Assembly: GCA_964355955.1 (NCBI GenBank) | Contig: CAYHFQ010000012.1 | Coordinates: forward strand, 1 to 31,292 | Source of the DNA: an uncultured Gammaproteobacteria bacterium | Lineage (GTDB): Bacteria; Patescibacteriota; Patescibacteriia; UBA9934 | Direction: 5' to 3' | Length of the DNA stretch: 31,292 nt | Part shown: positions 2,214 to 28,228 of the stretch, one piece after another | Layout: each line of letters begins with the position of its first letter | How positions within the stretch are numbered: position 1 is the first letter of the stretch | The notes under the pieces: model-generated | The model's input: the letters and a program-made list of their open reading frames with translations, nothing else | Told to the model about the DNA's origin: nothing | Database searches by the model: none | Made by a program: the position numbers and the translations under genes

Positions 2214-3431
2214 ATGGATTTTATGCGTGGTCGAGAATTTTCGGGGTATAAGATACCAGAGCATCTGGTTAGACCGTCAAAGGTAGAGATAGATACCGCT
2301 GGGACTGATTTGGCGAATTTGGAAGTTTTAAAGCAACGAGCATTGGTTTCCGAGCCGATTGGGGCAGAAACCTGGGGTTTGGTACTGCCAAAAGGGAAGA
2401 CTTATACGACTGGAGCCGGTTTGGATAATATGTTGTTTGTGGCGCGGGCGCATGAAAGATTGATTGATGTGGCGCAATTAAATACTCAGCAATTGCAGCG
2501 ATTGCTGGAGATGGCCGAGCAGTTACAGCAGGTTTATAAGCAACAAGAAGACCCTAATAATCCGTTAATTTTGCAAACGGTGGCGTTGAATTATCACGCT
2601 AATCCAGTAGCGAGAGATGTTTTTAAGAAAAAGCTAGCGGCCCAAACTTTAAAAGATTTACACTTTCATGTTGTTGGGTTTAGGGCGAGTGATGTGGAAG
2701 GTGAGAAAAAGTTAGAGCGAGAGCAGGTGACTAAGCAAGATTGGCGTGATATTCACGACCCGTTTTTGAAGGTGACAGAAAGATTATGGGCTCAGCCAGC
2801 GGTGCGTGCTAGTCTCATGGAGAACTTACAGATTCTGCGACCGGTAGAACAGGCTGATTTAGCTGGAGTTAATTTTTCTGTGCTACCCGATGAAATAACT
2901 TCACCTGAGTTAGCTAATGACTTGCAGACACTGCATAATAATTATTTGGCCGTATACAAACGAATAGCTGGATTGTTTGTGGATTTGACTAAACAGGATG
3001 CGACTGGGATGCCGCAGCTTTTAGCTGAAGACCAGCGAGTTGAAGCGATTGAGCGGTTTAGGCAAGAATTATTGGCAGAAGCACCAGACGAGGCTTCGAT
3101 TCAGATTTTGTTTAAATGGTTATTGCGGATGAGTAAGATATTAGTTTCGGGTGAGAAGATACGTGATAGCGTGCAGGCAGCAAAGGATAAAACTGTATTT
3201 ATTCGGGACCCGGCTTACACTATGTCGTTAACGCGAGAGTTGGGGAGTGATCAGGTGCTAGTAAATTTAGCACCACGTATATTGTCGACGGGAAACTTTT
3301 TAGCGGCCCTTGGTTTGCATCGAGTGATGGGCGGGGAGGTGACGGCTGAGTGGTTGGCAGAGAGGGAGAAGAATGAGCAGGCGATTGTGAGTCATTTTGC
3401 GGATGAGCGAAGGGAGCTGGCGGCGAAATAG
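2214..3431 (+). CDS. hypothetical protein (405 aa), family not recognised
   Basis: Long ORF with normal composition, followed by an intrinsic terminator. The only motif I noticed is LHFHVVG, a weak HIT-like His-x-His pattern, which is not sufficient for a call. Confidence 0.6.
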   Translation: MDFMRGREFSGYKIPEHLVRPSKVEIDTAGTDLANLEVLKQRALVSEPIGAETWGLVLPKGKTYTTGAGLDNMLFVARAHERLIDVAQLNTQQLQRLLEMAEQLQQVYKQQEDPNNPLILQTVALNYHANPVARDVFKKKLAAQTLKDLHFHVVGFRASDVEGEKKLEREQVTKQDWRDIHDPFLKVTERLWAQPAVRASLMENLQILRPVEQADLAGVNFSVLPDEITSPELANDLQTLHNNYLAVYKRIAGLFVDLTKQDATGMPQLLAEDQRVEAIERFRQELLAEAPDEASIQILFKWLLRMSKILVSGEKIRDSVQAAKDKTVFIRDPAYTMSLTRELGSDQVLVNLAPRILSTGNFLAALGLHRVMGGEVTAEWLAEREKNEQAIVSHFADERRELAAK

Positions 3432-3448
3432 AAGTTTGGTAAAAATAA

Positions 3449-3484
3449 CAAACCCGGCTGCGAGAACAGTCGGGTTTATTTACT
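3449..3484 (+). terminator. bidirectional rho-independent terminator; left border of island 1
   Basis: aacccggctg-cgagaa-cagtcgggtt stem (one G.T pair). It is followed by tttattt on + and preceded by aaaaataaca, which gives a T-run on the minus strand. Confidence 0.7.
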
Positions 3485-3540
3485 ATCATGAGCTTGGTAG
3501 GCAGAGGAGAGAGTCAACCGAGTACCTGGCTGATGATAGG

Positions 3541-3681
3541 AGTTTTGAGCTTTTGAGGGCTCGAGACTCTCGAACGGCGTAATGGGGGATTACGAAGTTG
3601 GAGAGTCCCCGCAAGCTAGCTGTTGTGCACAGAAAGTTGCGGGACGTTGGTGTGTCCCCCGGAGCAAGCTCGACGGGGGAC
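3541..3681 (-). repeat. island-1 intergenic hairpin module, copy 1 (downstream of the 168-aa gene)
   Basis: Minus strand carries GTCCCCCG..CGGGGGAC, then GTCCCGCAA-N22-TTGCGGGGAC, then GACTCTC-N29-GAGAGTC, then CCCTCAAAAGCTCAAAACTCC. Confidence 0.6.
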
Positions 3682-6604: not shown

Positions 6605-6680
6605 CGACCCTCGAAGTTCACGAGATGAACTCATGAGTTTTGAGAGTCTCCGCAACCAGCTAGTGCTAGTGGTTGCGGGA
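6605..6680 (-). repeat. island-1 intergenic hairpin module, copy 3
   Basis: Minus strand carries CCGCAACCACTAG-ca-CTAGCTGGTTGCGG (13-bp stem), then GAGACTCTCAAAACTCATGAGTTCATCTCGTGAACTTCGAGGGTCGTTC. Confidence 0.6.
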
Positions 6681-6726
6681 TGGTGCATCTGCTCATAACC
6701 CCGAGCGGACGGAGGGGCGAATTTAC

Positions 6727-7068
6727 CTAACGAACCTCCTTGTAGGAGATCGACCAGCTAGAGCGGCTGGTGGTGGACTTCCTGATCTCGGCGGTGCCGA
6801 GCAGGATGAACTTTTCGGTCTGGCCTGTGGGCCAGTAACCGTACTCAAGATTCTCCTCGGCCGCGAAGCCGAAAGACGGATCTTTTTCGGCCAGCCTTAT
6901 GAGCGGGCCGACGAGGTCGATGGTCACGACTAGCCTGGCAATGCCGGGGAGGTCGCAACCGTCGAGGGTCTCGAATACAAATGGCGCCAAAGGCGCCGTT
7001 TGTTTGTCGTAGTTACATCGGCGAATGCCGACGTCGTGTTTCCGTTGTCGTAATTTTTCGCAAGCCAT
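6727..7068 (-). CDS. hypothetical protein (113 aa), island-1 orphan
   Basis: Internal ATG 7068 has AGGAG 7 nt upstream. The track start 7161 is a GTG inside the conserved hairpin. GC3 is high. No family recognised. Confidence 0.55.
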   Translation of the reverse strand: MACEKLRQRKHDVGIRRCNYDKQTAPLAPFVFETLDGCDLPGIARLVVTIDLVGPLIRLAEKDPSFGFAAEENLEYGYWPTGQTEKFILLGTAEIRKSTTSRSSWSISYKEVR

Positions 7069-7126
7069 AGTGGCTCCTGGGCTGAGGTTAGATTGTCCCT
7101 CTAACTTCTCCAGTAATAACGACTGA

Positions 7127-7305
7127 AGAGTTCGGAGGGATCGGGAAACTTGGTGGTGCACACCAGAGGTTTCCCGGGAGAGGGTGAGTGAAGTCAGCCA
7201 GTGACTCCGTGCCGTTCTGTCTAGCTCAGAAGACGTTGGCTAGAAGACCCGCGTGGCCTTTGGCGACTATTTATGTAAGCGCTGTCGTCGGCGCTGTGAA
7301 CCTTG
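7127..7305 (-). repeat. duplicated leader block, copy A (hairpin module copy 4 plus 113-nt conserved block 7193-7305)
   Basis: Hairpin TCGGGAAAC..GTTTCCCGG lies at 7141-7177. The block 7193-7305 matches 8501-8613 at 109/113 positions (my count; all four differences are transitions). Confidence 0.85.
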
Positions 7306-7689
7306 CCGATAGTTGACTCCGTAAGGTTGGGGTGGAAAAGCTGAAGGACGTCAGCTAACGCGATGAAGCAGTCATCTCTGGTCTCGCTGGTATCGAAACG
7401 GTGTAGCACCAGTGACCGTTGGGCCTTAACTACTTTTTATACCGCGCCGTAGTCAGCGCTTGGGTGTCGACGATTGCGACCTCCTTTGGGTTGGGGTTTT
7501 GGTATTGAGAATCAGGAAGATCCTCGATTGACGACTCGAATGTTCTCGGAATAGAGATTCAAGTGGTCGATAGAAGACCCCACCAACGCGATGTGCGTCG
7601 AGCTGGTGGGAAATTCGTGCTGTGACTTTGTTGTGGTTGGGGTGTGATGAACTTGAATAGGAGTCGTCACGTCTCCTGGGAGGCTGCGC

Positions 7690-8289
7690 CTACTGCGCGG
7701 TGGCCTCCTGGAGGGAGGCGAGCTCGGCCGTGAGCCGGGTCACCTCCTTCTTCGCGGAGAAGCCGCTGTACCCCTTTCCGCCCGTGAGGACGAGCTTGCG
7801 CTCGGCCTCGACCAGTGCGGACTTGGCTGCCGCGATCTTGCCGGCTGCCTGGTTCCTCGCGGCCAGTTTTTCGGCAGCGGCGAGGGCCGCCTCCTTCTCG
7901 TCGCGGCGGGCGACCGCGACCTTATGGTCGGCGCGGGCGGCCGTGAGGGCCGCTCCCACCTTGTCGGCGGGGACGGTGCCCACAGAACGGGGAGTGTTGC
8001 AGCACCGATACCAGCCGAGTTCCGTTTCCGCGTTGCGGAGCTTACGCTCCGCGACCAGAACCTGGGCCTCGGCGGCCGCGACCTGCGCGACCGGGGCCGT
8101 GAGGCGGTCCTCTACCGCCTCCGAAAACTCCACCTCCGCGGCCGTGACGGCCGCCTCGAGGTCGAGGGTCTTGGCCGCCGCCGCCACGCGGCGGTTGATC
8201 TCGGCCTCGAGGACGGCGATTTCGCTGGCGAGCAGGGACAGGAGGGGAGCCGCGACGATGGGGGAGGTGCTGGAGATAGATGCGGTCAT
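7690..8289 (-). CDS. Ala-rich coiled-coil protein (199 aa), island-1 orphan
   Basis: ATG 8289 has AGAGGG 5-6 nt upstream and GC3 is high. Long heptad-like Ala/Glu/Lys/Arg segments are interrupted by GWYRCCNTPRSVGTVPADK. The + ORFs 7700..8305 and 7924..8301 are shadows. Confidence 0.65.
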   Translation of the reverse strand: MTASISSTSPIVAAPLLSLLASEIAVLEAEINRRVAAAAKTLDLEAAVTAAEVEFSEAVEDRLTAPVAQVAAAEAQVLVAERKLRNAETELGWYRCCNTPRSVGTVPADKVGAALTAARADHKVAVARRDEKEAALAAAEKLAARNQAAGKIAAAKSALVEAERKLVLTGGKGYSGFSAKKEVTRLTAELASLQEATAQ

Positions 8290-8419
8290 GGGACCCTCTG
8301 ATTGAACGTTGAATGCAGTTGGACTGACGCTAGACATCGAACCGGCCAAATTGCCGATCACAACATTTTGCGTAAATCGTTCTGCGAACGCCCTCGAACT
8401 TCACGATTGGATCAATCAT

Positions 8420-8613
8420 GAGTTTTGAGGGAATCGGGAAACTTGGTGGTGCACACCAGAGGTTTCCCGGGAGATATCGAGTTGGCGCTCGATGCGCAGA
8501 GTCAGTCAGTGACTCCGTGCTGTTCTGTCTAGCTCAGAAGGCGTTGGCTAGAAGGCCCGCGTGGCCTTTGGCGACTATTTATGTAAGCGCTGTCGTCGGC
8601 GCTGTGAACCTTG
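8420..8613 (-). repeat. duplicated leader block, copy B (hairpin module copy 5 plus 113-nt conserved block 8501-8613)
   Basis: Hairpin at 8434-8470 is identical to copy A. Relative to A there is a 28-nt versus 13-nt indel between hairpin and block. The sequence continues as CCCTCAAAACTCATGATTGATCCAATCGTGAAGTTCGAGGGCGTTC on the minus strand. Confidence 0.85.
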
Positions 8614-9369
8614 AAGATGACTTTCTCCAGTGGGCGTATATTGCCCGGTGATGATCTCGCTTCCCGCAGCCTGGATTGACACAGATATGTGCCGTCGCGC
8701 TGGCTGGTGGAGTTAGAGATCGAGTGCTGTGTCGACGTCGACGTTGTACGGGCAGGATTGCCGGGTACTGTCAGCCGTGACTCTGCAGCGCTCTCGAACG
8801 TCACCAGCGAGTGATGAAGTTGGAGAGCCCCTGAAGTAGATGCGAGGCATCACTTCAGGGCTAGGTCCCGTCAACACGAGGGCTGACGGGACACGAGTTA
8901 CGTTGTTCGTAACGTGAAGTATAATTTCCACGGGTTCCTAATGGACGGGCTCGAGAGTTGGCGAATCGGCGCAGGGCGTCGTCGTCAGTCGAGTAACCGT
9001 CGCCGGAAGGGCGCAGATACTTCTGTGTGTTAACTCTTCAGTTGTGAAGGTTCAGTTCCTTTGCCACGGTGGCTAAGCCTTGCGGCTGTTGGTAAGGACT
9101 GCAGGAGGTTCAAAACTGTTTTGAACTCCCGCGCACTCATTACCACGGTTATTTTCTCTGTTGTAACCGGGGGAAGTCTGGTGTGTTGGCCGAGCGTACT
9201 CAGTTACCACTTGCCAGGTTCCGACGTTCCGGCGGAGCCGGAGTGAGAACATAGGTGCTATCGAGTAAAAGTCTCTCTCACCCACTGTGGGGAATTGGCC
9301 TCGAGGGACCAGCTTTTGCTCAATGTCAGCTATGTGAGGGCCTTTTGTTCTCAAGCCTTGCGGCGAGAA
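8614..9369 (-). other. ORF-free, hairpin-dense segment (candidate long structured leader or ncRNA)
   Basis: No ORF over 93 aa on any frame, and none has an SD or island-like GC3. Many perfect stems are present: CCCTGAAGT/ACTTCAGGG 8829-8860, GTCCCGTCA/TGACGGGAC 8866-8891, GTTACG/CGTAAC, and GGTTCAAAAC/GTTTTGAAC ~9107-9127. Two GCC-GCAA-GGC GNRA-capped hairpins lie at 9079-9088 and 9356-9365. Confidence 0.35.
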
Positions 9370-9596
9370 GCAAAAAGGCAGGATTCAGTCTATCTAGTGT
9401 GGGGTTGCCCACGGAGAGAGAATGAATCCTGCCTTGGCAAACGCTACCTATGTAGGCTTGTCTAGTGTGGTACGAAGTAGAGCTGAGCTCACTTCATACC
9501 TGTGCCCCGTTTTTACCGGCACCCGTACTCTCTCTTAAGTTGTAAGGAACTAGTTTCTTGTAGGGCTGTTGGGCTTTCTCGTTCCCCTCAGCTTGT
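9370..9596 (-). ncRNA. candidate ~230-nt small RNA or leader bounded by a consensus promoter and an intrinsic terminator; class not recognised
   Basis: The predicted TSS is ~7 nt after the TATGAT box. The body contains stems GGTAtGAAGT..ACTTCgTACC and GTGCC..GGCAC. The 3' end is the terminator at 9371-9434. There is no ORF. I could not match it to SRP, 6S, tmRNA, T-box or the common riboswitch cores I know. Confidence 0.45.
9371..9434 (-). terminator. intrinsic terminator or attenuator
   Basis: Minus strand has a 12-bp stem AGGCAGGATTCA (9434-9423) / TGAATCCTGCCT (9387-9376). It encloses an inner GTGGG-caac-CCCAC hairpin and is followed by TTTTGCTTCT. Confidence 0.55.
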
Positions 9597-9602
9597 AGAC
9601 AC

Positions 9603-9631
9603 ATCATACCATTTTCTACGACTTCTGTCAA
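9603..9631 (-). promoter_or_regulatory. near-consensus sigma70 promoter pointing into island 1
   Basis: Minus strand has TTGACA (9631-9626), a 17-nt spacer GAAGTCGTAGAAAATGG, then TATGAT (9608-9603), with a TGg extended -10. Confidence 0.7.
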
Positions 9632-9690
9632 CTGCTGTGTGGCATGAATGCTAGAATAAGGCTAAGATTAGCTTATAAATTATCCACACC

Positions 9691-9725
9691 CTGTCATTTA
9701 CATTATGACAGTAAGGTGAAATAAT
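9691..9725 (+). promoter_or_regulatory. putative TrmB-gene promoter (TTTACA-17-AATAAT with TGa) overlapped by palindrome CTGTCAT-N7-ATGACAG
   Basis: The 21-nt palindrome at 9691-9711 covers the -35 hexamer at 9697-9702. It lies ~65 nt from the divergent island-1 promoter. Confidence 0.4.
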
Positions 9726-9790
9726 AGAGCCGGATAGGGTTAAATCAGGGCGGGGGACGGTGACCCCGCCTATTAAAGAGAGGCTATAAT

Positions 9791-10540
9791 ATGTATCAGG
9801 AAATACTGACTAAACTCGGGTTAAACGCGAATGAGGCCCATATTTACGAGCTTTTGCTGACTAAAGGCCGGACTAAGGCCCGGGATTTGCTGACGGATAG
9901 CGGCTTAGGCCGGGGCAACCTCTACAATGTGCTGACTAGTTTGGTCTCCCAGGGCTTGGCGACGGTGACAGAAGGGAAGCAGCAGATATATGAAGCGGCG
10001 GAGCCATCGCATCTCTCAACCCTCGTCGACGACCAGAAACGCCGAGCTGATCGCTTGGCGCAGGAGTTCCAGGGGGAGTTGCCGAAGTTGCTCTCGACGT
10101 TTAATTTAACGACAGGGAAGCCGGCGATTCAGGTGTTTGAGGGGATAGAGGGTGCAGAAATGGCTTTGATGGAATCATTGCAGGCTTCGAAGATAATTTA
10201 TACTTACGTTGATCCATCTACTTTTACCGAAGAAATTAAAGACTTGAACAGACGTTATGTACCTCAGCGTGAAAAGAAGGGAATACAAAAAAAGATTATA
10301 TTATGTGATAGTGAATGGGCACAAAAACATGCGTTAGCAGCTACTACTCAATTAACAGAGTATTTGTTAATTAAAGATTTCCCGCCAATGCACGATGTAG
10401 CCGTGGAAATGTATGATGATACAATTTCATATTTGGGTTTACGCGATGGAAAGACTATTTCTGTGATTGTGCATGATCCAGCAATAGCAAGAATGCATAT
10501 CGCTCAGTTTGAGTTTTTATGGAAAACCTTTAAACATTAA
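9791..10540 (+). CDS. TrmB-family transcriptional regulator
   Basis: N-terminal winged HTH LGLNANEAHIYELLLTKGRTKARDLLTDSGLGRGNLYNVLTSLVSQGL is typical of TrmB (PF01978-like). AGAGAGG lies upstream of the ATG. Confidence 0.75.
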   Translation: MYQEILTKLGLNANEAHIYELLLTKGRTKARDLLTDSGLGRGNLYNVLTSLVSQGLATVTEGKQQIYEAAEPSHLSTLVDDQKRRADRLAQEFQGELPKLLSTFNLTTGKPAIQVFEGIEGAEMALMESLQASKIIYTYVDPSTFTEEIKDLNRRYVPQREKKGIQKKIILCDSEWAQKHALAATTQLTEYLLIKDFPPMHDVAVEMYDDTISYLGLRDGKTISVIVHDPAIARMHIAQFEFLWKTFKH

Positions 10541-12975
10541 GTAGCCTTCTTTTCAAAAACAAAGGCACGCTTTGTCTTGTCTTTGTTTGGCATGTAAAAG
10601 CGTGTTGCTACAAAACCTTTGTCAAACATTTGTTTGCAATACTCAACCATATCTGAAGATTGTGACGGAAGAGAGAAAATGACCGGTGTTTGTTTATTTT
10701 TTGTCATCTCTGATTTTTCTTGATATTTAGTATTTTCTTTGTCATTACGACGTATTTTGAAGCGCAGAGTATTTTGACCAACTGAATCTACGCCGTTGAT
10801 AACGAATTTTTGGTCTTCTACATATGAAGTGCCAGCATCAAGGCCGATAGCGAAATCTGCTAATATGGTGTGTTTTTCGGCTAATGGCTTGAGCACTTCG
10901 TAGAAAAGTTGTTTGCCAAGACCAGAATCTTGAAGTGCTGGATCTACATTCAACGATCCTGCATAAAGTGCGTTTGGTTCTAAGCCTGGTACGTCGTCGA
11001 TACGGATAAAAGCCGCAATTTTGTCATGATATAAAATCATGGTGAAGGTTGAAGGAACATCTCCGGCGAGCGCGTGTTCCATTTTTTCACGTACTCGGGT
11101 AAATTCTGAAGATGACTTCATTTTCCAATTGTCATCAAAGATACGGTACAGATCCTTCTGTTCAAGATCTGTAAGCTCTACTCCTCGACGTTGCAGGAAA
11201 TTAACCCCCTGTAGATTTTCGATAGATAATTGACCTTCTTTGCCAACTGTACGGAGCGAAGAACCGAAAAGAGCCAGGTCGGTATTGCGACGAGCGAGGT
11301 CTTGTTTGAAGGTATCGAGCGTGGGTTTATCTTGTAGCGTGGCGGTGCGGGCTACGTCCTCCATGGCTGTGATGGCGCTGGCGACACGGCGGGTGAGTTC
11401 GTATTTGGCAACGCGACCTTGCTCGGGGGTCATTTGGCCTAAAGTGACGGCGGCAGCGACTTCGGCTAGCATTTGGCGACGGGTGCTACCAGCTTCGATG
11501 ACAGATTCGGCCAGTAAGGTGGCTTCGCTGGTGCGGAGTTCGGCAGCTACACGGAGATATTCGCGAGCGATATCTGGGAGGTCGGCGATTTCAGCGATGC
11601 TTTGGAGACCGGGTTCACCAATCTCTTTGGTGAGAGTGATAATTTGTTCGGTGTAGGGTGCGAGTTTGCTGATATTGCGGCGGAAGTGTTCGCGGGTAGC
11701 TAGGGGGAGGGCTTGGTCGACGTCGAGGCTGGCAGCACGGAGTTCATTATTGAAACCAGCCCAGACTGTTAGATTGTCGATAGCAGCTTTTAGTTCAGGG
11801 TTTTGGGCGGTGTCGACTAAATCGAGTAGGGTTGATTGGGTGAGTTCGACAGGTGCAGCGTAGCTGAGGGCGCCTTGGCCGTTATCGTAAGTTGTGAGCC
11901 GGGCGTCGCCTTTACGGAAGCGATTGATGAGAGAAATAGGCGTGAGGACGCCGTCTTCGTCGAGGACGATGGCCGACTGTTCGGGCGTGAGCTGCTCAAC
12001 CCGGACGGTGTGACCACCGAAGGCTCGACCAAGATTGTGTTTGACGCCGTCTATAGAGAGTAGACCTTTTGATGTGACAAGGCTTGCTTCGAGGCGGGTG
12101 CGAGTTTGGTGACGAGAGGCGGTGAAGTCGCTGTCACGAAGGAGACCTTCGGTGAAGAGGGTGGGGCAGTATTCTTTGAGGGCGGCGAGGGGGCGATCGA
12201 AGAGTAGTCCAGTGGATTTTTCGTTGCCTAGAGCTAGGCCTGGTTGAGCTCGAAACCAGTCGGCTGTTAGGGTATGACGTTTACCATCGTGATAGCGAAC
12301 CTCGAGTTTACCTTGGGCGTTGCGCTTAGCGTCACCAAATTTGGGGTTATATAAAATGGCCGCGACGGCAGTTTCTAAGGCTTTAGAATTATCGAGGGTA
12401 CGAGGAGCTGTAGCTGTTTTAATATCTTTTTTAGATAACCAGTCGGGTAATTCCCAGTAGCCTAAATGAAAGTCAGCGGCCTTGATGGCGTCGACGTCAA
12501 AGGCTTGTTCTTTGGTTTGGGGAGAGTAGACGAGTTGTTTAGCACCGTTTTCTGGTTTGTTGCGTAGTGTAACCGGTTCATCGCCAAAAGCATTAGCTAG
12601 GTAGTCGCCGCGGGTCCGTGAGAATGATTGGCCGTTTTCTGGGACAAAATCGGCGAATTTATGTTTGTTAAAGCGTTCTAGAGAAAAACCGTTTTTTGTT
12701 AGGAATGTGCCTTGCGTCAAGCGATGTTTAACCTGAGCAGAAAATTCAGTACGGGTTATTTTACCGGTTAAGATTTTGGCGATGTCTCGACCTTGAGGGA
12801 CTTCGCCACGCTCTACAGCGGCTTGAAGAAAATGAGTGAGTTCGGTGATGACCTCGGGGCCATAGTCGGCGGCGAGAGCATCAAACATTTGGCCAATATC
12901 TTTGGCTTTAGGTTTCTCTGGAGTGGGAGCGCGTTCTGCGCGACCAAAGCGCTGAGTACCGACCCATAATTCCAT
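10537..12975 (-). CDS. large hypothetical protein (812 aa) with C-terminal GNAT-like acetyltransferase fold motif
   Basis: The C-terminal ~170 aa contain AFIRIDDV..LYAGSLNVDPALQDSGLGKQLFYEVLKPLAEKH, which resembles GNAT motif A (Q/R-x-x-G-x-G/A). I do not recognise the N-terminal ~600 aa. Confidence 0.6.
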   Translation of the reverse strand: MELWVGTQRFGRAERAPTPEKPKAKDIGQMFDALAADYGPEVITELTHFLQAAVERGEVPQGRDIAKILTGKITRTEFSAQVKHRLTQGTFLTKNGFSLERFNKHKFADFVPENGQSFSRTRGDYLANAFGDEPVTLRNKPENGAKQLVYSPQTKEQAFDVDAIKAADFHLGYWELPDWLSKKDIKTATAPRTLDNSKALETAVAAILYNPKFGDAKRNAQGKLEVRYHDGKRHTLTADWFRAQPGLALGNEKSTGLLFDRPLAALKEYCPTLFTEGLLRDSDFTASRHQTRTRLEASLVTSKGLLSIDGVKHNLGRAFGGHTVRVEQLTPEQSAIVLDEDGVLTPISLINRFRKGDARLTTYDNGQGALSYAAPVELTQSTLLDLVDTAQNPELKAAIDNLTVWAGFNNELRAASLDVDQALPLATREHFRRNISKLAPYTEQIITLTKEIGEPGLQSIAEIADLPDIAREYLRVAAELRTSEATLLAESVIEAGSTRRQMLAEVAAAVTLGQMTPEQGRVAKYELTRRVASAITAMEDVARTATLQDKPTLDTFKQDLARRNTDLALFGSSLRTVGKEGQLSIENLQGVNFLQRRGVELTDLEQKDLYRIFDDNWKMKSSSEFTRVREKMEHALAGDVPSTFTMILYHDKIAAFIRIDDVPGLEPNALYAGSLNVDPALQDSGLGKQLFYEVLKPLAEKHTILADFAIGLDAGTSYVEDQKFVINGVDSVGQNTLRFKIRRNDKENTKYQEKSEMTKNKQTPVIFSLPSQSSDMVEYCKQMFDKGFVATRFYMPNKDKTKRAFVFEKKAT

Positions 12976-14493: not shown

Positions 14494-14847
14494 TTAGAGG
14501 GTTATATTGTTGATGAAAGAGTTTAACATGCGCATTGTTTCACTGAGTAGTTCCTCGATCCGTTGTTTTGTGTTTTTTGATAAATACCCGAAATCTTTTG
14601 CTAGAATTAATTGTGTTTCTAATTCAGCTCCCGATCCGTAAGCTATGTAAAGAAATTTTCTGAAGTCTTTTTGACTTCCTCGTCGTGATCCTTCTGCAAT
14701 ATTACTTGGGATAGATATTGAAGCACGTCGCATTTGAGAAGTTAGTCCAAATCTTTCATGATGAGGAAAGGTGTTCGTCAACTGATAAACTTCGCGACAA
14801 ACATCCATGCTCTTTTGCCAAATCAGTAATTCATTATAGGCAGCCAT
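14494..14847 (-). CDS. four-helix-bundle protein (the family formerly called 23S rRNA intervening-sequence protein)
   Basis: 117 aa. LIWQKSMDVCREVYQLTNTFPHHERFGLTSQMRRASISIPSNIAEGSRRGSQKDFRKFLYIAYGSGAELETQL is the characteristic family pattern. Confidence 0.85.
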   Translation of the reverse strand: MAAYNELLIWQKSMDVCREVYQLTNTFPHHERFGLTSQMRRASISIPSNIAEGSRRGSQKDFRKFLYIAYGSGAELETQLILAKDFGYLSKNTKQRIEELLSETMRMLNSFINNITL

Positions 14848-15461: not shown

Positions 15462-15615
15462 TTCGCTCGCAACTGACGGATTATCCTATTCCTAGCTGCG
15501 CCTCGTCAACCGTACCAGCCGTCTCACCTCGTATGACTCGGGCGCTGGTACAGGGCCGAGGCTGGCGTCGTCATAGGACAACCCGCCAGCTGCTCGCTCC
15601 TACAAGGCTCAGGCT
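15462..15615. repeat. palindromic intergenic repeat family, copy 2 (5'-truncated)
   Basis: Same core as copies 1 and 3, in the same orientation, in the divergent tdk/GT4 intergenic region. Confidence 0.8.
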
Positions 15616-22440: not shown

Positions 22441-22630
22441 GTCTTTGCGAGCATCAGCGAAGCAATCAAGGCGTATCGCTCGCGATTGCCACATCTCCTA
22501 TTCCTAGCTGCACCTCGTCAACCGTGCCAGCTGGCTCACCTCGTCTGACTCGGGAGCTGGCACAGGGCCGAGGCTGGCGTCGTCATAGGAGATGTGGCAA
22601 CCGCTGCCCCACTCTACAAGCCTCAGGTTC
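22441..22630. repeat. palindromic intergenic repeat family, copy 3 (best outer stem)
   Basis: The 13-nt arms CCACATCTCCTAT / ATAGGAGATGTGG enclose the conserved core. It starts 10 nt from the GT4 ATG. Confidence 0.8.
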
Positions 22631-25249: not shown

Positions 25250-25646
25250 AATTGGTGTTCAGGGGGAGCCGATAAGCCGGATTTTGTCATGGACGGTAAT
25301 CTCTCTAGGCCCACGATTGCTCGGGGGCTCAGGCGAACGACCAAACTTGTTCTTGCACCAAGACGGGTTTGCCACAACTCCGTGTCACCACGGGTTGACC
25401 ACTGTAGCGACATAACTGCTATGTCACACCAGTAGACTTTTCACGTTTCACTCGGTCATTGCTGACCGGGCTAGTATAGTCTCTGTGGTACTTTCCCTAG
25501 GCTTTGCGTCTTGCGACGTTTATACCCGATCGCCGTTAGCGATGTCTTTTGGCCCGTAACCTTACGGCTATGGAGGTGTCCGGACTTTCCTCTTGATGGA
25601 GTCGCAAGCGGCTCGCACAAGTAACCGTCTAGCTACCCTGAACGCT
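25250..25646 (-). ncRNA. rnpB: RNase P RNA, bacterial type A
   Basis: Minus strand carries GAGGAAAGTCCGGACACCTCCATAG (25592-25568; compare E. coli GAGGAAAGUCCGGGCUCCAUAG). It also carries ACAAAATCCGGCTTATCGG (25286-25268; compare ACAGAACCCGGCUUAUCGG). The P1 pairing is GTTCAGGG (25643-25636) with CCCTGAAC (25263-25256). Confidence 0.9.
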
Positions 25647-25649
25647 GCG

Positions 25650-25678
25650 AGTATAGCAAAAATTAGTTGTTTTGTAAA
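25650..25678 (-). promoter_or_regulatory. rnpB promoter TTTACA-17-TATACT with TGc extended -10
   Basis: I counted the spacer AAACAACTAATTTTTGC as 17 nt. The predicted TSS coincides with the start of P1. Confidence 0.7.
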
Positions 25679-25705
25679 GCAAATTCCCCAGGCGGAGCTG
25701 GGGAA
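25676..25705 (-). terminator. intrinsic terminator ending the island-2 operon; overlaps the rnpB -35
   Basis: Minus strand reads TTCCCCA-gctccgcc-TGGGGAA followed by TTTGCTTT. Confidence 0.6.
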
Positions 25706-25777
25706 TGAGACGGGCCACAGTCGTTCGCGAACGACGTGGCGGGTGTTCAGCGCGATTACATCGGCTGAACGAGACGG

Positions 25778-25864
25778 TTACGGGGAGTGGCGAGAGCGCC
25801 AGATGACGATGGCGAGGCCAAGCACCACGGCGGCGGCTAGCCAGTAGTCAGCAGCAGTGCGCAT
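25778..25864 (-). CDS. possible 28-aa single-TM micropeptide (MRTAADYWLAAAVVLGLAIVIWRSRHSP)
   Basis: Hand-translated and below the ORF-track cutoff. It overlaps the end of the 58-aa ORF in another frame. It has a hydrophobic core and a basic tail. I saw no clear SD. Confidence 0.25.
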   Translation of the reverse strand: MRTAADYWLAAAVVLGLAIVIWRSRHSP

Positions 25865-26013
25865 TCGGCCACCTCCTCTTCGGGGCTACAGGCGTCCCAG
25901 TCGTCGAGGGTCAACTCGTGAACTCGGCCATCGGCGTGGTGGATGGTAGCCTGGCCGCCTGGTCCGACTACGACCAGGTAGCTGGTCGACGACTTGATCT
26001 TGTCGTCGCTCAT
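25837..26013 (-). CDS. small acidic hypothetical protein (58 aa), island 2
   Basis: ATG 26013 overlaps the upstream stop as ATGA (26013-26010), which suggests translational coupling. GC3 is high. Confidence 0.5.
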   Translation of the reverse strand: MSDDKIKSSTSYLVVVGPGGQATIHHADGRVHELTLDDWDACSPEEEVAECALLLTTG

Positions 26014-26528
26014 GAGCCCACCTGCTGAACCACGTTCTTGCCGGTGGCGATGTCCCAGTAGCGGATCTGCTCGATCAGTCCCGACCAATCCTTGACCGAG
26101 GCCCAAGCAATCTTGGGGCAATCCTCGGGGTCGACGAGCAACAGCAGGTCGGCCGGGACGTTCGGGTAGATCGAAACTTCCTGCCTAGAGCCACTGGCCG
26201 CGAGATGTCGAGGATGGAAAGGGCCCTCGTTATCCCAGACATCGTGGTGCCGGGCGTCGCCGATGATCTCGAGCTTGGCGTTGTCGCCGAACTTGAGGCC
26301 CTTGCCGAGGTCGAGTTCGGTGAGCCTGGCCTCGCCTTGGGTGGCGGTGACGACGATGGCGGCGACCTGGCCGTGGGCGCGACACTCCTCAGCCGTGTTT
26401 GGCGTGAAGCTGACGGTCAGGATGGCCGGCAAGGTGTTGGTGGCGACGAAGCTCGGGTCGATCTCACCGTCAACCGGTGCGCAGGAGGTGGCGAGGCCGA
26501 GGGAAAGGGCGAGGATGAAGTTGCGCAT
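26010..26528 (-). CDS. putative lipoprotein (172 aa), island 2
   Basis: ATG 26528 has GGAGG 5 nt upstream. The signal peptide is MRNFILALSLGLATSC with a relaxed lipobox. The track N-terminal extension crosses the leader repeat. Confidence 0.65.
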   Translation of the reverse strand: MRNFILALSLGLATSCAPVDGEIDPSFVATNTLPAILTVSFTPNTAEECRAHGQVAAIVVTATQGEARLTELDLGKGLKFGDNAKLEIIGDARHHDVWDNEGPFHPRHLAASGSRQEVSIYPNVPADLLLLVDPEDCPKIAWASVKDWSGLIEQIRYWDIATGKNVVQQVGS

Positions 26529-26580
26529 GGGCGCCTCCGAAAGGGGGTGAGGGGTGGGTGGTGAATTTAGGGAGGGAATG

Positions 26581-26656
26581 TCCGCCCTTCGCTGCGCATG
26601 AGCCTTTGATGTTGGAGCTCGTGAACAAGGAAGGGCCGGCCGAGTGTGAGAACTCG
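26581..26656 (-). repeat. island-2 structured leader element, copy 1
   Basis: Minus strand reads CCGAGT-tctcac-ACTCGG, GCCGGCCCTTCCTTGTTCACGAGC...GCTCATGCGCAGCGAAGGGCGGA. P1 is CCCTTC/GAAGGG and encloses a CACGAGC hairpin. Confidence 0.75.
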
Positions 26657-26682
26657 ACGGGACTTGCGGGTGGATGATGAGC

Positions 26683-27078
26683 TCAAGCATTGATGTAACA
26701 CTTGAGGACATCGGTGGCGGCCCTGCTCAACGTCGCGGCGTCGGGCCGGAAATTGCCAGTGGGGCCGAGCACGGAGTCGATGGTGCCGTCGGAGTTGTCG
26801 TCGCCCAGGTGGAGGGTGACGAAGCCGCCGACGTCGCCGTTCGTGTTCTGCACGGTCATGATGAGGTAGAGCGTGCGCAGGCCGTTGTCGCGAACGGTGA
26901 GGCCGACGCTGTTGCTCAAGCCGACTGGGCAGTCGAAGCTGTCAAAGTAGTCGGTGGCACCGTTGACCGCAATGGCTCGGCTGGTGCTGCTCAGCTTGAG
27001 ATCCGCGGCGGCAGCGAGCGCGCTCGGCACAGTGGGTTGGCCGGCGGCGAGGGCGAGGGTGACGAGGGTGGGAATCAT
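26683..27078 (-). CDS. small secreted protein (131 aa, two Cys), island 2
   Basis: GGAG lies 6 nt upstream. The signal-like N-terminus is MIPTLVTLALAAGQPTVPSALAAAAD. GC3 is near-saturated. Confidence 0.65.
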   Translation of the reverse strand: MIPTLVTLALAAGQPTVPSALAAAADLKLSSTSRAIAVNGATDYFDSFDCPVGLSNSVGLTVRDNGLRTLYLIMTVQNTNGDVGGFVTLHLGDDNSDGTIDSVLGPTGNFRPDAATLSRAATDVLKCYINA

Positions 27079-27109
27079 GGGTGCTCCAGAGTTTCAGGGA
27101 AGAGTGATT

Positions 27110-27176
27110 TCCGCCCTTCGCTGGGCACGAGATAGGCTCGTGAACAAGGAAGGGCCGGCCGAGTGTGAGAACTCGG
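27110..27176 (-). repeat. island-2 structured leader element, copy 2
   Basis: Nearly identical to copy 1 outside the inner loop. It abuts the stop codon of the 66-aa gene. Confidence 0.75.
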
Positions 27177-27377
27177 CTAGAGGGAGGCGACAGCGGGGCT
27201 GGTGGGAGCAGGACGGTAGAAGTCCTCCAGACCGGCGTCGTCGCGGTAGATCTGCCAGATGGCAGGGAGAGCTGGCGTGGACTCGGCCGGGATGGCGCCG
27301 AGATCGATGACGACCGGGGCGCTGGCCATGGGCTTGGTGGAAGTGCAGGCCAAAAGGGCAAGGATAAGAAGGGTCAT
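27177..27377 (-). CDS. small lipoprotein (66 aa), island 2
   Basis: MTLLILALLAC has a canonical L-L-A-C lipobox. GGAG lies 9 nt upstream. Confidence 0.6.
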   Translation of the reverse strand: MTLLILALLACTSTKPMASAPVVIDLGAIPAESTPALPAIWQIYRDDAGLEDFYRPAPTSPAVASL

Positions 27378-27412
27378 GGGGTGGCTCCGGTGGCTGGTAG
27401 GGAAGATTGATT

Positions 27413-27488
27413 TCCGCCCTTCGCTGAGCGCGAGAATGGCTCGTGTTCAAGGAAGGGACGGGTAGGTGCGAGAAGGCGCACACTACCC
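27413..27488 (-). repeat. island-2 structured leader element, copy 3 (divergent first hairpin)
   Basis: The core CCCTTCCTTGAACACGAGC..CTCAGCGAAGGGCGGAAATCA is conserved. The upstream hairpin is replaced by GGGTAGTGTGCGCC..GCGCACCTACCC. Confidence 0.7.
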
Positions 27489-27510
27489 AGAACGCGGCTC
27501 ACTGGTGGCC

Positions 27511-27690
27511 CTAGAAGAGGCCAGCCACGAAGTGCCAGGCGAGGGCGATGTCGGTGACGAAGTTGGTGCTGGCGGCGAGCGCGATGCTCGCGTAGGCCAG
27601 GATGATGATCAACATCATGCGGGTTTGACCGCTGGTGATGATGTTGTCGTTGCCGAGGGTGTCGAAGTATGTGACCGGGGTGTTGGACAT
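27511..27690 (-). CDS. small membrane protein (59 aa), island 2
   Basis: ATG 27690 has GGAG 9 nt upstream. A polar 24-aa N-terminus precedes the hydrophobic MMLIIILAYASIALAAS..IALAWHFVAGLF. Confidence 0.5.
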   Translation of the reverse strand: MSNTPVTYFDTLGNDNIITSGQTRMMLIIILAYASIALAASTNFVTDIALAWHFVAGLF

Positions 27691-27823
27691 GGCGGGTGCT
27701 CCGGGAGTTGGTGGGCTGTTCGGCTGCGGAAATGCAGACCGGTGATGCGCAGAACCCGAGGAGACGGGTGGGTTCTGCACACGGCCGGTGCGGCCTCAGT
27801 GAGAGGCCGCGGTGGCGACGAGA

Positions 27824-28228
27824 TCAGCTGCGGTTGTCCGGCAGCTGCCAGCGCCCATCGACTTCCACCAGCTTGATGGGGTGGTCGGCGCACCAGGGCA
27901 AGACCTGGCTCGGCTGCGTGGGTTTGTAGCTCGCGAAGTCGTGGCAGATGTCGCCGACGATGGGGCGCTCTGTCGGGAAGAGGAGCATGCCCACGATGCC
28001 GCCGATGGCTGCGCAGATCATGACTGCCAGGCCGAGGACTGGCCAGGAGAAGATGTCCCAGCTCGTGTACAGGGTCGAGGCGACGCCGATGATGGCACCG
28101 ACCAGCGCACCGATGAAGGACCGGCGGTTGAAGACCGGGATCAGCAGGTCGATGACGAAGAACGTGAAGATGGTGAGGAACAGAAAGACGGTGGTGATGA
28201 CGATGCCGAGGAGGCGAAGAAGGCGCAT
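27824..28228 (-). CDS. integral membrane protein (134 aa, about 3 TM) with Cys/Trp-containing C-terminal tail, island 2
   Basis: ATG 28228 has GGAG 6 nt upstream. GC3 is near-saturated in this frame only. The competing ORFs 27615..28265 (-) and 27812..28255 (+) are Pro/Arg/His- or Asp/Gly-rich shadows. Confidence 0.65.
   Translation of the reverse strand: MRLLRLLGIVITTVFLFLTIFTFFVIDLLIPVFNRRSFIGALVGAIIGVASTLYTSWDIFSWPVLGLAVMICAAIGGIVGMLLFPTERPIVGDICHDFASYKPTQPSQVLPWCADHPIKLVEVDGRWQLPDNRS

Follow-up and report, generated by a model that had tools for sequence, protein, structure and literature searches.

The put RNAs of bacteriophage HK022, each of about 70 nt and made of two stem-loops, occur one per promoter and act in cis on transcription. 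The early and late mRNAs of phage T7 carry two-tier RNase III processing hairpins with internal loops between their cistrons. Gene-free units are also known from gene arrays: integron cassettes that lack an open reading frame (ORF) and have promoter activity have been documented (Tansirichaiya et al. 2019, PMC6557892), and T4-type phages carry PeSL (promoter early stem-loop) modules (Arbiol et al. 2010, PMC2839356; Comeau et al. 2014, PMC4122927). Here we describe a locus in a 31,292-nt contig (CAYHFQ010000012.1; the window, to which all positions refer unless another contig is named) from an uncultured bacterium of the Patescibacteriota (assembly GCA_964355955.1), one of 41 contigs (C12) of a 1,098,433-base genome with a G+C content of 51%. 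Two 113-nt segments of the window, 7193-7305 and 8501-8613, are nearly identical and precede two unrelated genes. We propose that they are copies of a non-coding module of ~146 nt, folded as RNA on the minus (gene-sense) strand, and give this explanation as a whole a probability of about 60%. The narrower claim, of a structured, conserved and non-coding array module on the gene-sense strand, is very probable.

A prediction made earlier from the letters and ORFs of the window (the original prediction) had reported the pair, and direct comparison reproduced its count of 109 identical positions of 113; the four differences (7198 C/T, 7213 C/T, 7233 A/G and 7247 A/G) are all transitions. A repeat finder delimited the pair as 7192-7310 and 8500-8618 (95%) and found a second pair next to it, a hairpin block at 7137-7181 and 8430-8474, identical at 44 of 45 positions. 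The start-to-start spacings, 1308 nt for the blocks and 1293 nt for the hairpins, leave a net 15-nt indel in the spacer, the same as between the 13 and 28 nt given before, and the distances from the blocks to the ATGs at 7068 and 8289 are likewise as had been stated. Block and hairpin together form direct repeats of ~225 nt that flank the first cassette gene of the array, p199, directly. All genes of the island are on the minus strand and the region is therefore read on that strand.

BLAST of the whole genome found no block copy other than these two, which we call c1 (containing 7193-7305) and c2 (containing 8501-8613). A covariance model, in addition, revealed a third, diverged copy, c0, at 7336-7474, directly upstream of c1 and in tandem with it. 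The genome, thus, carries three copies of the module: c2 at the end of the array leader, and c0 and c1 in tandem after the first cassette gene. The earlier picture of two copies ahead of two genes is right as to the two copies and incomplete as to the third. Three assemblies made independently from different samples (ERZ4201064, in a 1.08-Mb contig; ERZ27287891; ERZ4201065) contain both c1 and c2 in unchanged arrangement, which rules out that the duplication is an assembly artefact, a possibility that the original prediction had raised.

From 5′ to 3′ the module, which has four hairpins that covary, consists of hairpin P1, an A-rich single-stranded joiner (A-N-A-N-AAAU-R-S-C), hairpin P2, the interleaved helices S1 and S2, hairpin P4 with a CUGNC loop, and hairpin P5; in the genus, an invariant hairpin, H1d, follows on the 3′ side. 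S1 and S2 are built from four segments, a, b, c and d, where a pairs with c and b with d, and, because of this interleaved order, they would represent a pseudoknot or else a pair of alternative states, with selection acting on both. In five genus sequences, 100% of the S2 cells are paired, and both sides changed in four of the five pairs. Hand-checked versions of S2 are UUCUG/CAGAA, CUUCG/CGAAG, CCCCG/CGGGG, CCUCG/CGGGG and GUUUCG/CGAGAC; those of S1 include UCUAGC/GCUAGA (the TCTAGC..GCTAGA stem already visible to the original prediction), CCUAGU/ACUAGG, UCCAGC/GCUGGA and CUGGU/ACCAG. Both helices are fully paired in all six genus copies, which comprise five sequence versions, and their loops are fixed at 6-8, 1-2 and 0 nt. 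P4 has the form CGGAGUCA-CUGRC-UGACUCUG with a conserved G·U pair, and P5 shows a compensatory insertion in one genome of the genus (G007) and a C-G to G-C swap in another (G002).

Over all modelled helices, a model-fitted alignment of seven sequences had 92% of cells paired and 12 of 21 pairs changed on both sides (0/500 shuffles; 31-43% in slid controls), and one of 11 sequences, also model-fitted, had 97.5% paired and 16 of 21 pairs changed on both sides (0/500 shuffles; 31-47% in slid controls). We rely mainly on the model-independent counts for S1 and S2 (five genus sequences; six copies) and on the blind matches of the first covariance model, described below. The strand is indicated by G·U against A·C combinations in the modelled helices, 14 versus 1 on the minus strand, and by a shuffle-based folding z-score of -4.6 on the minus versus -2.8 on the plus strand. 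The general mark of a conserved structured RNA, compensatory helices above controls and on one strand, is found here, with few lineages and with some of the alignments model-fitted.

The apex of H1d and of its copy H1e contains the self-complementary GUGCAC, which is the palindrome of one HIV-1 dimerisation loop. A UGCAC loop, carried by a different stem, also recurs in a genome of another genus (G029), in the hairpin that follows the last of its tandem blocks. Kissing (loop-loop) contacts between copies are conceivable.

Three other genomes of the genus (G001, G002 and G007) carry one block with H1d each, in synteny, ~1.2 kb from a divergent TrmB-type gene. Since these single copies sit at the syntenic place of c2, c2 is the ancestral copy, and it forms the last, optional, ORF-less unit of a leader of ~1.2 kb. 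The DNA between the block and the tail of the array differs from genome to genome in content and length (2.8 kb in G001, 3.9 kb in G007, 9.4 kb in G002 and 4.8 kb here). Families of junction modules recur throughout the arrays of the genus, and gene content switches between genomes exactly at the hairpin modules. In distant relatives, reached through TrmB homologues of 48-57% identity, the first part of the leader (part A) is colinear and diverged, with the promoter and several stems kept and with compensatory changes; these relatives lack the block.

The first covariance model, R1, was built from the five genus copies detectable by BLAST. It matched blindly both c0 and a copy in a different genus (G014; 24.3 bits); both retain P1, S2, P4 and P5 in altered sequence, with the CUGNC loop of P4 preserved. 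A second, later model, R2, found three tandem copies in G029, which represents a third genus, between the leader and the array genes in the same layout of TrmB-type gene, promoter and leader (a fourth copy directly after the leader was recognized by eye), and a weaker single copy in a member of another family (G144). In G014 and G029 the module is also on the gene-sense strand. Altogether a match was found in 8 of the ~155 distinct genomes of the order that were searched, a rare and patchy distribution. Six different genes follow the module groups examined, and they are unrelated except for one homologous pair in G001 and G002. The module is therefore tied to the leader and the junctions of the array, and not to particular genes. 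A link to an Ala-rich coiled-coil gene, which is flanked by the module in G000 and G029, was considered and dropped; the two proteins have no sequence homology, and we treat their resemblance as compositional.

None of the versions of the module matched Rfam 15, whose sole gathering match in the window is RNase P RNA (25256-25640). An Rfam search by E-value of 6900-9900 and of the G029 leader and tandem copies gave chance-level matches only, all outside the block. A metagenome scan with the H1d pattern found no match; two metagenome contigs matched the P4 pattern, fail the covariance model and look like chance.

The copies have a mosaic identity. The 19 nt on the 5′ side of c1 are 84% identical to G007 and 79% to G002, against 53% to c2, and homology of c1 to the copies of other genomes extends to ~7325. 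These ~15-19 nt and the ~45-nt module past the hairpin of c1 are homologous to the same positions of other genomes rather than to c2; the sequence distal to the blocks, which had been called essentially unrelated, is not wholly so. In the 5′ half of the block c1 equals c2 and differs from G002 at 1 of 51 bases. In the 3′ half, c1 is 89% identical to c2 and 58-66% to the orthologues. The hairpin H1 is invariant, and the junction module behind it, Me, begins with 15 nt of the G007 version, unlike its counterpart Md. The copy c2 is itself recombinant, with 98-100% identity to G002 in its 5′ part (8809-8634) and 98% to G001 in its 3′ part (8519-8436). Because identity changes in this mosaic fashion, the copies appear to have arisen as homologous modules were exchanged repeatedly among related arrays, rather than by simple local duplication, and the core of the block was probably homogenised or recently recombined; direct repeats around p199 are what recombination through the module would be expected to leave. 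Gene conversion or recombination had been anticipated by the original prediction, and the mosaic bears it out. The stretch 8809-8634 has its 98-100% identity to G002 within a leader that is otherwise ~83% identical, pointing to a recent interspecies exchange of a non-coding segment.

A template/variable repeat pair of a diversity-generating retroelement (DGR) was also considered and ruled out, since the differences are two C/T and two A/G and the genome contains no reverse transcriptase (no RVT_1 match). A gene at 14494-14847 (-) matches the bAvd / 23S-rRNA-IVP families (four-helix-bundle protein); as the genome has no reverse-transcriptase match, this gene does not belong to a complete DGR.

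The features of the locus are collected in Table 1. The promoter at its head is the only strong sigma-70-type site on the minus strand between 9900 and 3300 in the promoter scan; it is invariant in four genomes of the genus and recognisable in the distant L070, L073, L074, L075 and G029. The ~1.3 kb that follow it contain no convincing gene. Across the genus, part A of the leader shows 77-88% identity; runs of up to 51 nt are invariant, its indels are not multiples of 3, and Rfam has no match for it. A hammerhead-like CUGAUGAG...GAAAC at the leader start of G001, G002 and G007 was dropped; it is not conserved in this genome and gave no Rfam call. Inside part A, ~230 nt after the leader start, lies a long terminator-like hairpin with a T-run (9370-9433, minus strand; GGCAGGATTCA...TGAATCCTGCC), which has compensatory changes and is kept in every lineage examined, including the distant L070, L073, L075 and G029. 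Either an attenuator or the end point of an RNA of ~230 nt is conceivable here.

Table 1. Positions of the leader, module copies, hairpins and cassette genes, in order of transcription
Feature	Position	Strand	Details
Array promoter	9603..9631	-	TTGACA-17-TATGAT, TG-extended; promoter scan, 11/12 match
Leader part A	8834..9597	-	~760 nt, ORF-free, hairpin-rich, highly conserved; genus and distant alignments
M0	8790..8828	-	terminal two-tier hairpin of part A (GCTCTC...GAGAGC); same type as junction M modules; weak hit of the junction model
Variable stretch between M0 and block	8619..8789	-	98-100% identical to G002; largely deleted in G001 and G007
Block copy c2 (syntenic)	8473..8618	-	contains 8501-8613; covariance match 175.5 bits with R1, 161.7 bits with R2
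c2 elements			P1 8586-8603; A-rich joiner 8573-8585; P2 8554-8566; S1 8547-8552/8528-8533; S2 8535-8539/8523-8527; P4 8497-8517; P5 8476-8493
Hairpin H1d	8430..8474	-	CGGGAAAC...GUUUCCCG, inner UGGUG-UGCAC-CACCA; invariant in five genus copies
Junction module Md	8386..8428	-	CCCTC...AACT...inner hairpin...AGTT...GAGGG
Cassette gene p199	7690..8289	-	Ala-rich coiled-coil orphan, GC3 0.89; between c2 and c0/c1
Second-type junction module	7506..7621	-	hairpin CCCACCAGC...TTGGTGGG at 7579-7610, then M-like part
Block copy c0 (diverged, tandem)	7336..7474	-	20.3 bits with R1, E ~1e-3 (R1 built without c0); 90.8 bits with R2
c0 helices			all kept with different sequences: P1 7444-7459; S1 7408-7412/7387-7391; S2 7394-7399/7381-7386; P4 7362-7376; P5 7339-7356
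Block copy c1	7168..7310	-	contains 7193-7305; helices as c2 minus P5; 139 bits with R1, 129.9 bits with R2
Hairpin H1e	7137..7181	-	copy of H1d, 44/45
Junction module Me	7095..7135	-	first 15 nt as in G007, unlike Md
Cassette gene p113	6727..7068	-	orphan, GC3 0.72
Array end	3441..3664	-	last junction module H1a+Ma 3664-3556; conserved tail; intrinsic terminator 3477-3441
GC3, G+C content at third codon positions.

After p113 the array continues with H1c/Mc, p674, H1b/Mb, p174, H1a/Ma, the conserved tail and the intrinsic terminator. GC3 is 0.72-0.89 in the cassette genes versus 0.45-0.48 in the flanking core genes, and the cassette proteins match nothing in Pfam or PHROG. The genes next to the array encode a TrmB-type regulator, a large GNAT-domain protein and a transketolase. 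A hidden Markov model (HMM) of the five H1+M modules matches this array only within the 1.1-Mb genome (M0 weakly); the modules are therefore array-specific, and a generic repetitive extragenic palindromic (REP) or terminator element is ruled out. The scan called no intrinsic terminator at H1d or H1e, where the downstream sequence (AUUCCCUC / AUCCCUCC) has no direct U-run. The second-type junction module is also present in G002 (four times), G001 (twice) and G007 (once). A phage origin of the island was rejected, as its proteins have no PHROG match and no exact H1d or P4 motif is present in IMG/VR.

The ORF tails that cross both blocks on the minus strand (7221-7409 and 8529-8804) could suggest a small protein whose C-terminus (KVHSADDSAYINSRQRPRG...) is encoded by the block, the more so as an open frame of 93 aa is present in G007. 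The original prediction had doubted that these tails belong to a real gene, and rightly so: the reading frame breaks in orthologues, the aligned blocks of G007 and G001 having gaps of 1 and 13 nt, and the peptide beyond KVH is unrelated. Likewise, the N-terminal parts of the two window ORFs share nothing, as had been noted, their GC3 is 0.62-0.63 against 0.72-0.89 in the island genes, Pfam and PHROG give no match, and substitutions compensate in the stems instead. We thus ruled out a small protein gene and give it next to no weight. A promoter or operator, also offered by the original prediction, fares little better. In c1, c2 and G002, TTCACA (5/6) lies 17 nt from TACATA (3/6), and it could be that an ORF-less promoter cassette drives the next gene from this site while a repressor binds the P1 palindrome in the spacer; ORF-less integron cassettes with promoter activity are known (PMC6557892), and a TrmB-type regulator is encoded beside the array. 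However, the site is below the threshold of the promoter scan, which made no call in either block copy, the -10-like string lacks the key final T, and in G007 and G001 the two strings are 16 nt apart. Both hexamers are lost in G014, G029 and G144, where the hairpins persist. The half-sites of P1 and P4 covary and their sequence is not kept, unlike in a DNA operator, which argues that the palindromes are RNA stems. A sigma-70 promoter with operator is not supported, given the lack of a scan call and of conservation in hexamer sequence or spacing, and we consider any internal promoter cassette very improbable.

A recombination site acting at the level of DNA, as folded single strand or bound duplex, is quite unlikely. 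The block would then be a joint for cassette insertion and excision similar to integron attI/attC, or an att repeat from integration into the 3′ end of an RNA gene, and the two copies would be direct repeats left around p199. The ~225-nt repeats that flank p199, the change of gene content exactly at hairpin modules between genomes, the mosaic identity, and the conservation of stems as structure rather than sequence, as in attC sites, all agree with this. But the flanking repeats are equally explained by homologous recombination between repeated modules, and the 14:1 ratio of G·U to A·C on the gene-sense strand fits RNA. No integrase adjoins the array; the sole tyrosine recombinase of the genome (PF00589, 309 aa, C1:85385-85906) is on another contig, and there is no reverse transcriptase. 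The modules contain no attC core sites (RYYYAAC / GTTRRRY), the closest strings seen by eye in the five junction modules being GTTCGAG and GTTAGAG. The block, furthermore, is missing at the other four junctions of the array and in most arrays, hence it is not a general joint, and tandem copies (c0-c1 here, three in G029) are unlike remnants of att sites. An RNA that is processed and works on its own, as a trans-acting small RNA, a protein-binding decoy or a self-cleaving ribozyme cutting the polycistronic RNA, is unlikely, though several observations agree with it: the compact multi-helix fold with a pseudoknot-type core and conserved unpaired nucleotides, the tandem copies, the apparent independence of function from the downstream gene, and the structured modules on both sides (M0 or 7506-7621 upstream, H1/M downstream), which could be processing sites. 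Against it, the scan found neither a promoter nor a terminator belonging to the module, no Rfam ribozyme or small RNA family matches, and no target or partner was identifiable; nothing in the present sequence evidence separates it from a role in cis.

Of the readings in the original prediction, that of a conserved non-coding cis element, in the form of a shared 5′ leader or RNA element, fits best. We propose that the module would be transcribed from the promoter at 9631 within a polycistronic array RNA that ends at ~3441, and that its fold would act in cis along with the H1/M hairpins on its 3′ side. The extra copies would stem from recombination between homologous array modules, and not from selection to co-regulate the two genes that follow them. 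A role in the processing or stability of the downstream RNA is tentative; if the module does act in cis, it is most plausibly an element of processing, stability or insulation. A bolder version is rather improbable: the block could represent a new class of RNA fold that punctuates polycistronic cassette transcripts of the candidate phyla radiation (CPR), either a self-cleaving ribozyme or an exoribonuclease-stalling pseudoknot, the latter a bacterial analogue of the tandem exoribonuclease-resistant RNAs (xrRNAs) of flaviviruses that would determine the 5′ ends of the cassette mRNAs downstream and how long these persist. The interleaved S1 and S2 with their fixed loops, the unpaired, conserved A-rich joiner and the tandem copies would agree with such a role.

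Several points weigh against the proposed folded RNA module. Its transcription, its processing and any function at the RNA level would all be deduced from sequence. The larger covariation counts come from model-fitted alignments, which favour structure, and the independent lineages are few (~5 versions in the genus and ~6 distant copies). Because every stem is also a palindrome at the DNA level, a DNA single strand could fold in the same way. The copy c1 has lost P5 and may be decaying. The module is also absent from relatives that have the leader and the array (G004/L066, L070, L073 and L075) and is, thus, dispensable for the array as such.

Other features of the window deserve mention. About 70 nt inside the frame of p113, at 6975-7005, an A-tract/GGCGCC-TTT-GGCGCC/T-tract hairpin is terminator-like on both strands; it also follows closely on an 86-aa ORF of the plus strand (6673-6933), and the coding assignment at this place deserves a check. 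A 405-aa orphan gene (2214-3431, plus strand) occupies a low-GC patch (43-45%) between a pseudouridine synthase gene and the array terminator; the patch is absent at the same place in G001 and is probably a separate insertion. The large protein encoded at 10537-12975 (minus strand), of 753-958 aa across homologues and with a weak C-terminal GNAT match only, may belong functionally to the locus: in all the relatives examined its gene is conserved next to the TrmB-type gene in convergent orientation, the 3′ ends overlapping or abutting. An intergenic element of ~130-150 nt with a long internal hairpin is present in three copies on the plus strand (542-671, 15464-15593 and 22476-22605; 72-88% identical). 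Its hairpin shows a compensatory change (GTGCCAGC...GCTGGCAC versus GTACCAGC...GCTGGTAC). The element has no Rfam match and could represent a further regulatory repeat or structured RNA of the genome. A second high-GC stretch (~25500-28000), beside the RNase P RNA, has at 26578-27478 a repeat of 75-110 nt (TTTCCGCCCTTCGCTG...GGCTCGTGAACAAGGAAGGGCCGGCCGAGTGTGAGAACTCG) in three copies spaced by 303-529 nt; it may be another array of cassette type that has junction modules of its own.

The analysis turns an odd repeat into a defined and searchable RNA family, with a covariance model, helices P1-P5 and a pseudoknot-type core. Absent from Rfam, the family is present in at least four genera of Uhrbacteria, and in each case it lies in one unusual type of locus: a strong promoter, a long conserved leader, strain-variable and compositionally foreign orphan genes, and array-specific hairpin modules, with no integron machinery. 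The mosaic copies are direct evidence that non-coding modules, and not genes alone, are exchanged between lineages at this locus. If the module controls the processing or stability of the array RNA, it would give a handle on the expression and exchange of accessory genes in tiny uncultured bacteria.

Compared with known systems, the locus has partial counterparts. With the ORF-less cassettes of integrons (Treponema/oral metagenome; PMC6557892) it shares gene-free units among co-directional coding cassettes behind one upstream promoter, and the presence, absence or duplication of these units independently of neighbouring genes. Unlike integrons, it has no IntI beside an attI and a cassette promoter and no attC core sites, its junctions being array-specific double hairpins, and its gene-free unit is characterized by a conserved multi-helix RNA fold and not by promoter activity. 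As with PeSL modules (PMC2839356; PMC4122927), short conserved non-coding motifs flank variable orphan genes, and recombination between motifs shuffles, duplicates or deletes genes, which matches the mosaic identity and the repeats around p199. PeSLs, however, are composites of promoter and terminator at every junction of a phage genome, whereas here a 146-nt folded module stands at some positions only of a bacterial chromosome, one minus-strand promoter call serves the whole array, and the junctions have no hairpin with a T-run. In contrast to TIGR (tandem interspaced guide RNA) arrays (PMC12045711), the hairpins are separated by protein genes and the unit length is 146 nt. The H1 and M modules, known here from sequence, resemble the intercistronic hairpins of T7 in being two-tier with internal loops, while the block itself is no simple two-tier hairpin. 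Like the putL and putR RNAs of HK022, near-identical structured RNAs occur twice in one genome, with a promoter upstream and unrelated genes downstream, and may act in cis; the block is larger and tandem, with no demonstrated terminators to override, except for the terminator-like hairpin at 6997-6983. What the locus adds to these systems is a defined family of structured RNA with a pseudoknot-type core, a third copy in this genome, tandem arrays, an occurrence in other genera, and a history of mosaic recombination.

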